Made by a program: the position numbers and the translations under genes. Positions 20,223 through 20,644 of a stretch of DNA of 64,000 bases are shown piece after piece; the stretch's first letter is position 1, and each line of letters opens with the position of its first letter. The notes beneath the pieces were generated by a model. The model did not search any database. It was given only the letters and a program-made list of their open reading frames with translations, and was not told the DNA's origin. The DNA lies in NCBI RefSeq assembly GCF_003334385.1, contig NZ_QOWN01000004.1; one strand, 5' to 3'. The stretch comes from Escherichia coli. Its GTDB lineage: Bacteria > Pseudomonadota > Gammaproteobacteria > Enterobacterales > Enterobacteriaceae.

Positions 20223-20259
20223 AACTTACTTTTAGTAAGTACGTACAAAAAGGTAAGTA
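20223..20259. promoter_or_regulatory. Inverted and direct GTAAGT repeats in the qorB/ytfH divergent promoter (candidate YtfH/HxlR-type operator)
   Basis: aacttact-ttt-agtaagt palindrome followed by acgtac and a second ggtaagta copy, just upstream of the ytfH start. Confidence 0.45.
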
Positions 20260-20263
20260 TGAA

Positions 20264-20644
20264 ATGAGTCAGGTTAGCCTGTCACAACAACTGAAAGAGG
20301 GTAATCTCTTTGCGGAACAGTGCCCGTCGCGCGAGGTGTTGAAACACGTCACCAGCCGTTGGGGGGTGTTGATTCTGGTGGCGCTACGCGAAGGTACTCA
20401 TCGCTTTAGCGACCTGCGGCGCAAAATCGGTGGGGTGAGTGAAAAGATGCTTGCGCAGTCGTTACAGGCGTTAGAACAGGATGGTTTTCTTAACCGTATC
20501 GCGTATCCGGTGGTGCCGCCGCATGTGGAATATAGCCTCACGCCGCTGGGCGAGCAGGTGAGCGAAAAGGTTGCTGCACTGGCGGACTGGATTGAGTTGA
20601 ATTTGCCCGAGGTGTTGGCGGTGCGGGATGAACGTGCGGCATAA
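20264..20644 (+). CDS. ytfH: HxlR-family transcriptional regulator YtfH
   Basis: 126 aa from MSQVSLSQQLKEGNLFAEQCPSREVLKHVTSRWGVLILVAL...; the track start at 20153 is an upstream extension. Confidence 0.9.
   Translation: MSQVSLSQQLKEGNLFAEQCPSREVLKHVTSRWGVLILVALREGTHRFSDLRRKIGGVSEKMLAQSLQALEQDGFLNRIAYPVVPPHVEYSLTPLGEQVSEKVAALADWIELNLPEVLAVRDERAA

Follow-up and report, generated by a model that had tools for sequence, protein, structure and literature searches.

Divergently arranged HxlR- and MarR-type repressors of oxidoreductase genes are well known, and the arrangement described here for YtfH of Escherichia coli is not conceptually new. Among the related systems, QorR of Corynebacterium glutamicum senses oxidants and has been described as a repressor (PMC3351151, PMC8176726). 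In the quinone-sensing repressors YodB of Bacillus subtilis and QsrR of Staphylococcus aureus, the N-terminal sensing cysteine is alkylated by quinones and the dimers fit two successive major grooves of the DNA (PMC8063818). The B. subtilis protein HypR (YybR) protects an inverted repeat of 7-2-7 layout, GTATCAAAATTGATAC; a second copy, serving autoregulation, lies downstream of its own promoter (PMC3351151). HxlR, the B. subtilis founder of the family, is a formaldehyde-activated activator that needs Lys13 to form a Cys-CH2-Lys bridge, and Cys11 of HxlR is named as the conserved residue with which members of the family sense electrophiles and oxidants (PMC7835342). YtfH itself appears in lists of E. 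coli transcription factors whose function is unknown (PMC9308461, PMC4797297), and a literature search with the operator sequence returned no relevant match. We propose, with a probability of about 0.8, that the 35 bp at 20224-20258 of the DNA analysed here are the operator region through which YtfH represses qorB and its own gene.

The window, that is the whole stretch of 64 kb that was analysed, is E. coli chromosome; its positions 20100-20400 are 100% identical to many complete genomes, in which the two genes are annotated as qorB and ytfH. They are divergent and are separated in E. coli by a spacer of 88 bp. The genes and translation signals are as follows.

19315-20175, minus strand: qorB (ytfG), NAD(P)H:quinone oxidoreductase of the NmrA-like family (open reading frame and RefSeq annotation); the presumed regulated target
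20183-20186, minus strand: qorB Shine-Dalgarno sequence, GGAG on the minus strand, read from the sequence (1.2-1.7 bits)
20249-20253, plus strand: ytfH Shine-Dalgarno sequence AAAGG, read from the sequence; overlaps the spacer and an arm of O2 (below)
20259-20267, plus strand: mini-ORF of two codons, ATG-AAA-TGA; its stop codon overlaps the ATG annotated for ytfH at 20264 (sequence and cross-genus comparison)
20264-20644, plus strand: ytfH, HxlR/DUF24 winged-helix regulator of 126 amino acids with a single cysteine at residue 20 (RefSeq start, ATG 20264)

The start of ytfH differs in its setting between E. coli and its relatives. In the cross-genus comparison AAAGG stands 5 nt ahead of the ATG at 20259, and an in-frame ATG at this position is likely to be the ytfH start codon in most other genera. 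The ribosome-binding site of the annotated E. coli ATG is 10 nt away, and the E. coli gene may be translated by re-initiation or by coupling via the mini-ORF, which strain 4621 keeps as ATG-AGA-TGA. Many database entries for YtfH are N-terminally extended to 138-212 amino acids, for example from a GTG at 20153 (20153-20644; clusters P0001-P0010); these entries read through the operator into the start of qorB and look like gene-calling artefacts.

The assignment of YtfH to the HxlR-type winged-helix regulators, part of the original prediction, was borne out by a match of residues 29-115 to Pfam HxlR (PF01638, E = 7.2e-32) and by matches in the PDB to 1yyv (Salmonella YtfH), HxlR, HypR/YybR (4a5m, 4e-14), YodB (5hs7, 9e-10) and YtcD. 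Cys20 of YtfH, in the motif C-P-S-R, aligns with Cys11 of HxlR; it is invariant in 81/81 orthologs, is the sole cysteine in 80 of these 81, and 102 of 115 distant representatives have it as well. The recognition helix, too, is nearly invariant. Some annotations call the Citrobacter orthologs 'redox-sensing transcriptional regulator QorR'.

The spacer holds a perfect 7-3-7 inverted repeat, ACTTACT at 20224-20230, TTT, and AGTAAGT at 20234-20240. GTAAGTA recurs at 20253-20259, 12 bp past the palindrome and 18 bp start-to-start from the copy at 20235, and the third GTAAGT itself (20253-20258) ends 5 bp short of the ytfH ATG. The palindrome and the third GTAAGT just upstream of ytfH, which had been singled out beforehand, are thus present in the sequence as described; only the proposed start at 20223 has to be moved, as it lies one base outside the palindrome, which begins at 20224. 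The palindrome by itself is unremarkable against chance: the window has eight perfect 7-3-7 palindromes of any sequence, compared with 4.0 +/- 1.9 in shuffles. The exact 17-mer occurs once in the 64 kb. GTAAGT/ACTTAC is rarer in the window than expected, with 16 copies on both strands against about 31; despite this scarcity three copies fall within 35 bp, so that the cluster stands out more. A near-copy of the palindrome with two mismatches, ACTCACTGCCAGTATGT, is found at 18225-18241, at the 3' end of the ytfF ORF. We considered it as a second YtfH site, but an invariant arm position is broken in it (GTATGT) and it is probably a chance match.

Comparison across genomes, described below, led to a somewhat different anatomy from that of the original prediction, which had a 7-3-7 palindrome followed by an extra half-site. 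The sites stood, but the conserved core is 6-5-6 and not 7-3-7, and the third half-site, far from being an orphan, forms the right arm of another dyad, an imperfect one. The predicted elements, from the comparative analysis, are as follows.

20224-20240, no strand: O1, predicted operator, ACTTAC(T)-TTT-(A)GTAAGT, with the conserved core RCTWAC-N5-GTAAGT (6-5-6)
20241-20258, no strand: O2, predicted operator, imperfect dyad ACGTAC-AAAAAG-GTAAGT (6-6-6) abutting O1; general form ACGYAC-N6-GTWAGT
20224-20229, inverted: H1, ACTTAC, left arm of O1
20235-20240, direct: H2, GTAAGT, right arm of O1
20241-20246, inverted: H3, ACGTAC, left arm of O2, 5/6 matches
20253-20258, direct: H4, GTAAGT, right arm of O2

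The half-site centres of O1 are 11 bp apart. The spacer of O2 exceeds that of O1 by 1 bp. With 17.5 bp between the centres of the two dyads, dimers on O1 and O2 would not share one face of the helix. That O1 and O2 are occupied by two YtfH dimers is a guess.

A species-level genome scan gave 80 Enterobacterales loci, from which 79 distinct spacers were compared. Of the 80 species, 78 retain qorB and ytfH as a divergent pair, with a spacer of 84-105 bp. Across 20225-20263 the mean is 1.85 bits per position and 25 of the 39 positions are invariant, so that this block matches codon positions 1 and 2 of ytfH and qorB in conservation; the qorB-proximal half of the spacer (20176-20209) reaches 0.97 bits with 1/34 invariant, and third codon positions 0.91 bits in ytfH and 0.82 bits in qorB with 1-3% invariant. 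Part of the conservation at 20249-20263 must stem from the ribosome-binding site and start codon of ytfH. Variable positions inside the block are 20227 (A in 56 spacers, T in 22), 20243-20244, 20255 and 20261, and among E. coli strains the sole change seen inside it is T/C at 20244. The palindrome is perfect in 22 of the 79 spacers, from E. coli, Citrobacter, Salmonella and Proteus, and the left arm in most genera is ACTAACT or GCTAACT, that is, with one or two mismatches. The TTT between the arms of O1 is replaced by AAA in Proteus and by TAA in Morganella, with the arms unchanged. In O2, AC..AC and GTAAGT are invariant, and 20243-20244 and the A-run vary.

Loci that have lost qorB were informative on the two dyads. 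In one of them (L053) O1 and O2 are both kept. In another, Lelliottia nimipressuralis CCUG 25894 (L042, positions 1440-1500), O1 has become a new perfect palindrome, ACTAACT-TTT-AGTTAGT, each arm of which departs from its E. coli counterpart at the central base; O2, together with the GTAAGT ahead of the start codon, has degenerated to ATGTGT-GAAAAG-ATCAGT. A sister strain that retains qorB (L066) has the canonical block. This single case, L042, suggests that O1 may serve autoregulation and O2 mainly the control of qorB. A separate observation concerns E. coli FORC_031 (L091), in which an IS1 insertion has taken the place of the spacer from about 20198 onward, with loss of ytfH and of part of cpdB, the metallophosphoesterase gene further downstream. 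Only some 22 bp of the native sequence upstream of qorB are left, and the strain is a natural deletion of ytfH and the operator.

More distant relatives were sampled with eight representative homologs at 52-69% protein identity, traced to their contigs. The layout is kept in seven of the eight, and the genes adjoining the distant ytfH homologs encode a Pfam NmrA domain. The homologs at 54-69% identity retain RCTWAC, GTAAGT, ACNNAC and GTWAGT with altered spacers and A-runs, as in GCTTACT-TTT-GGTAAGT-ACGCAC-TTTTTG-GTAAGT (L081), ACTAACT-TAA-AGTAAGT-ACGCAC-ATAAAG-GTAAGT (L082) and GCTAACC-ATG-CGTAAGT-ACGTAC-CTTGAG-GTAACT (L088). In L081 the A5 run has turned into T5 and the start codon is further off, and the GTAAGT is still present. 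H2 and H4 are kept best in the most distant of the fetched homologs (54-56% identity), H3 next and H1 least. The 52%-identity homolog (L086) lies in AT-rich surroundings unlike the others, where neither an NmrA gene nor the motif is present.

Metagenomes were scanned with the pattern GTAAGTAC-NN-AC-N6-GTAAGT, which holds the right-hand part of the element and leaves the left arm unspecified. Among 120 matches, a YtfH-like gene begins 28-118 nt downstream at 92 and a divergent QorB-like gene is present at 85; one or both genes are found at 98 and neither at 22. Six matches lack only ytfH, and at five of these the contig ends within about 30 nt on the ytfH side, at the sixth (L164) after 81 nt. 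At 20224-20229, where the pattern specified no left arm, the 84 non-redundant loci associated with the genes show RCTWAC with 0.7-1.6 bits, whereas the 21 non-redundant matches with neither gene are flat at the left-arm positions (<=0.25 bits). The five bases between the arms of O1 are T-rich but free in the metagenome loci, for example TATTA, GAATA and GGACA. This argues strongly that the symmetric element travels with the ytfH/qorB pair, and the module extends far beyond Enterobacterales. The site is not a product of chance, because it is conserved and because the motif is linked to ytfH and qorB genes in unrelated metagenomes. On three metagenome contigs (L095, L104 and L195) the HxlR-family gene has only 38% identity to YtfH, and in two cases its divergent neighbour is NmrA-like with 30% identity; GTAAGTAC-GCAC-TTTTTT-GTAAGT is still present about 90 nt upstream, with no recognisable left arm, which suggests that the direct GTAAGT pair is the oldest part of the element.

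The promoters were placed relative to these sites as follows.

20210-20218, minus strand: predicted sigma-70 extended -10 of qorB, TGTTAGCGT on the minus strand (TGnTAnnnT), from invariant positions in the 79 spacers
20198-20226, plus strand: candidate ytfH promoter in E. coli, TTGTGT at 20198-20203, 17-bp spacer, TAAACT at 20221-20226, read from the sequence
20203-20231, plus strand: candidate ytfH promoter in most other genera, TTGTGG at 20203-20208, 17 bp, TAACTT at 20226-20231, from sequence

For qorB, positions A20210, T20214, A20215, C20217 and A20218 are invariant in the 79 spacers and their neighbours are variable. TAnnnT recurs at the same distance from O1 in the metagenome loci (n = 84, non-redundant), with 1.3-1.8 bits and flat controls; it is present in about 74 of these 84, with hexamers such as TATTCT, TATGAT and TACAGT, and the TG in only about half. 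We infer a qorB transcription start near 20203. O1 starts 8 bp upstream of the -10 hexamer and would extend from about -21 to -37 relative to the predicted start, taking in a poor -35 (TTACTA), and O2 from -38 to -55. A consensus scan offered one weak candidate on the qorB strand, GTGACA-18-CATACT, which was rejected as its -35 falls in the non-conserved ytfH start. A published list proposes yet another qorB promoter (PMC3946193), and the literature search found no data on a mapped qorB transcription start. For ytfH, TA at 20221-20222 accompanies T20227 in 22 of 22 spacers as against 1 of 56 when 20227 is A. At the distant loci TAnnnT in either ytfH register is found in only 50 of 84, and we hold the ytfH -10 with moderate confidence, less firmly than that of qorB. 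In either register the candidate ytfH -10 overlaps H1, and O1 would therefore lie over its -10/+1, with a ytfH start expected near 20233-20238. A single operator region would thus span both promoters, which diverge and overlap, a layout classic for repressors.

One explanation for the conserved block is that it is kept solely for core expression, through the -35 or UP region of qorB and the -10, ribosome-binding site and start of ytfH, that it has no regulator of its own and that its symmetry is incidental. AAAGG at 20249-20253 with the ATG at 20259 does make a good ribosome-binding site and start in most genera, TAAACT/TAACTT overlaps the left arm, and the A-run could be an UP element for the promoter with the weak -35. 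However, drift is the rule in promoter spacers and in the bases that separate a ribosome-binding site from its ATG, yet here they are invariant, and the arms remain symmetric as the spacers between them change. Core expression would also leave the GTAAGT of L081, which stays when the A-run is inverted and the start codon has moved, without a role; L042 has altered both arms in such a way that a palindrome was recreated, and the motif accompanies HxlR genes down to 38-54% protein identity. We consider it very unlikely that core signals are the whole explanation.

The same stretch could instead act as RNA, with 20224-20233 pairing with 20249-20258 in the ytfH leader to hide the ribosome-binding site and control translation. 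These two segments are 90% complementary over 10 nt and the helix is used in the minimum free energy structure. The fold is nevertheless weak, at -9.1 kcal/mol with z = -1.53 and an equally good fold in 17 of 200 shuffles; its central pair 20227/20255 is a standard one in only 18 of 79 sequences, and the changes in the T-run in Proteus and in the A-run in L081 are uncompensated. Moreover, transcription of ytfH is predicted to begin within or beyond the left arm, and there was no Rfam match, the only hit having E = 0.75. A regulatory hairpin is accordingly the least credible of the alternatives considered and would be highly surprising.

Evidence from a perturbation comes from a December 2025 preprint, in which CRISPRi of ytfH raised qorB by log2 4.6, about 24-fold (bioRxiv 10.64898/2025.12.20.695731, supplementary note 6). 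qorB changed in the ytfH perturbation only, and no more than about 4% of cells showed the increase (bioRxiv 10.64898/2025.12.20.695731). The derepression is supportive and not conclusive, because dCas9 sitting close to two divergent promoters that overlap could increase qorB by easing the competition between them and not through loss of YtfH. That YtfH controls the divergent qorB and regulates itself, as had been suggested from the promoter sequence, is nonetheless supported by the synteny of the pair, by conservation, by the link between motif and genes and by this derepression.

Another possibility is that the operator is real and is bound by a different protein, either another redox or electrophile regulator or a global factor, and E. 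coli does possess other electrophile and quinone regulators, which counts in favour of this. The preprint also lists ytfH among the regulators without binding data (bioRxiv 10.64898/2025.12.20.695731). Against it, the YtfH-like gene is immediately downstream of the motif in those 92 of 120 metagenome matches, from very different taxa, and the motif is kept in L053, which has lost qorB and still has ytfH. The recognition helix of YtfH is as invariant as the arms in the DNA, and the preprint knockdown of ytfH raises qorB specifically. It would be quite exceptional, on these grounds, for another protein to be the cognate regulator of the site.

A further alternative accepts YtfH as the binding protein and makes it an activator or dual switch, which represses in the reduced form and, once Cys20 is modified, aids polymerase at the qorB promoter. 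The family does include the activators HxlR and HypR, and HypR activates hypO and probably represses itself (PMC7835342, PMC3351151); in addition, the qorB promoter would combine an extended -10 with a poor -35 (TTACTA), and the centre of O2 would lie near -46.5. However, knockdown of ytfH increases qorB expression and does not decrease it, O1 over the -35/spacer region is in a repressor position, and QorR, the closest functional analogue named in the literature, is a repressor (PMC3351151). Activation by YtfH is thus unlikely. A composite form assigns the two functions to the two dyads, reduced YtfH on O1 blocking both promoters and Cys20-modified YtfH remaining on O2, or moving to it, and aiding polymerase at the qorB promoter; this strikes us as equally improbable, but if true it would make YtfH an electrophile switch from repressor to activator and not a simple release-type repressor.

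For repression, the following scheme may be drawn up. One winged-helix YtfH dimer would bind each pseudo-palindrome, contacting successive major grooves 11-12 bp apart. On O1 it would cover the -35/spacer region of qorB together with the -10/+1 of the opposing ytfH promoter, and on O2 it would extend the occupancy over -38 to -55 of qorB and the first part of the ytfH leader. With YtfH in place, RNA polymerase would be kept off both promoters, so that qorB would be repressed and ytfH autoregulated. Modification of Cys20 by a quinone, or by another thiol-reactive electrophile or oxidant, would then release YtfH and induce QorB; release through Cys20 is expected by analogy with QorR, YodB and QsrR. 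The first step, occupancy by YtfH that excludes polymerase, draws on the comparative evidence and one perturbation data set, and we infer the binding, its two-dimer stoichiometry, the inducer and the precise points at which transcription starts.

In E. coli some transcription factors are still left with neither a known binding site nor a known signal, and YtfH belongs to them. A precise predicted operator can now be given for it, with two dyads, four half-sites and a placement relative to a conserved promoter, together with a single candidate sensor, Cys20. The recent knockdown observation, in which qorB goes up as ytfH goes down, thereby gains a testable direct mechanism, and the consensus RCTWAC-N5-GTAAGT can be used to find further YtfH targets.

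Set beside the described members of the family, YtfH has its closest functional analogue in QorR of C. glutamicum, a small HxlR/DUF24 regulator that acts, as predicted for YtfH, on a quinone oxidoreductase gene (qorA), although their hosts, Actinobacteria and Enterobacterales, are far apart. The enzymes are presumably of different families, as we take QorA to be of the zeta-crystallin/MDR type and QorB to be an NmrA-like SDR. YodB and QsrR, quinone-sensing repressors, belong to the same Pfam family as YtfH. The site of QsrR is GTATA-N5-TATAC. These two proteins control several unlinked detoxification genes, in contrast to the one divergent gene of YtfH, and YodB has a second cysteine (Cys101) for disulfide formation whereas YtfH has Cys20 only. 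HxlR shares its domain, and its Cys11 is the counterpart of Cys20, but the C-P-S-R motif of YtfH, unlike HxlR, has no lysine at +2, and the formaldehyde bridge of HxlR is therefore not expected. HypR, again an HxlR/DUF24 protein like YtfH, uses a Cys14-Cys49' disulfide, while YtfH has one cysteine, and HypR activates its target from -53 to -95, whereas the predicted YtfH sites overlap the core promoter and the knockdown data indicate repression.
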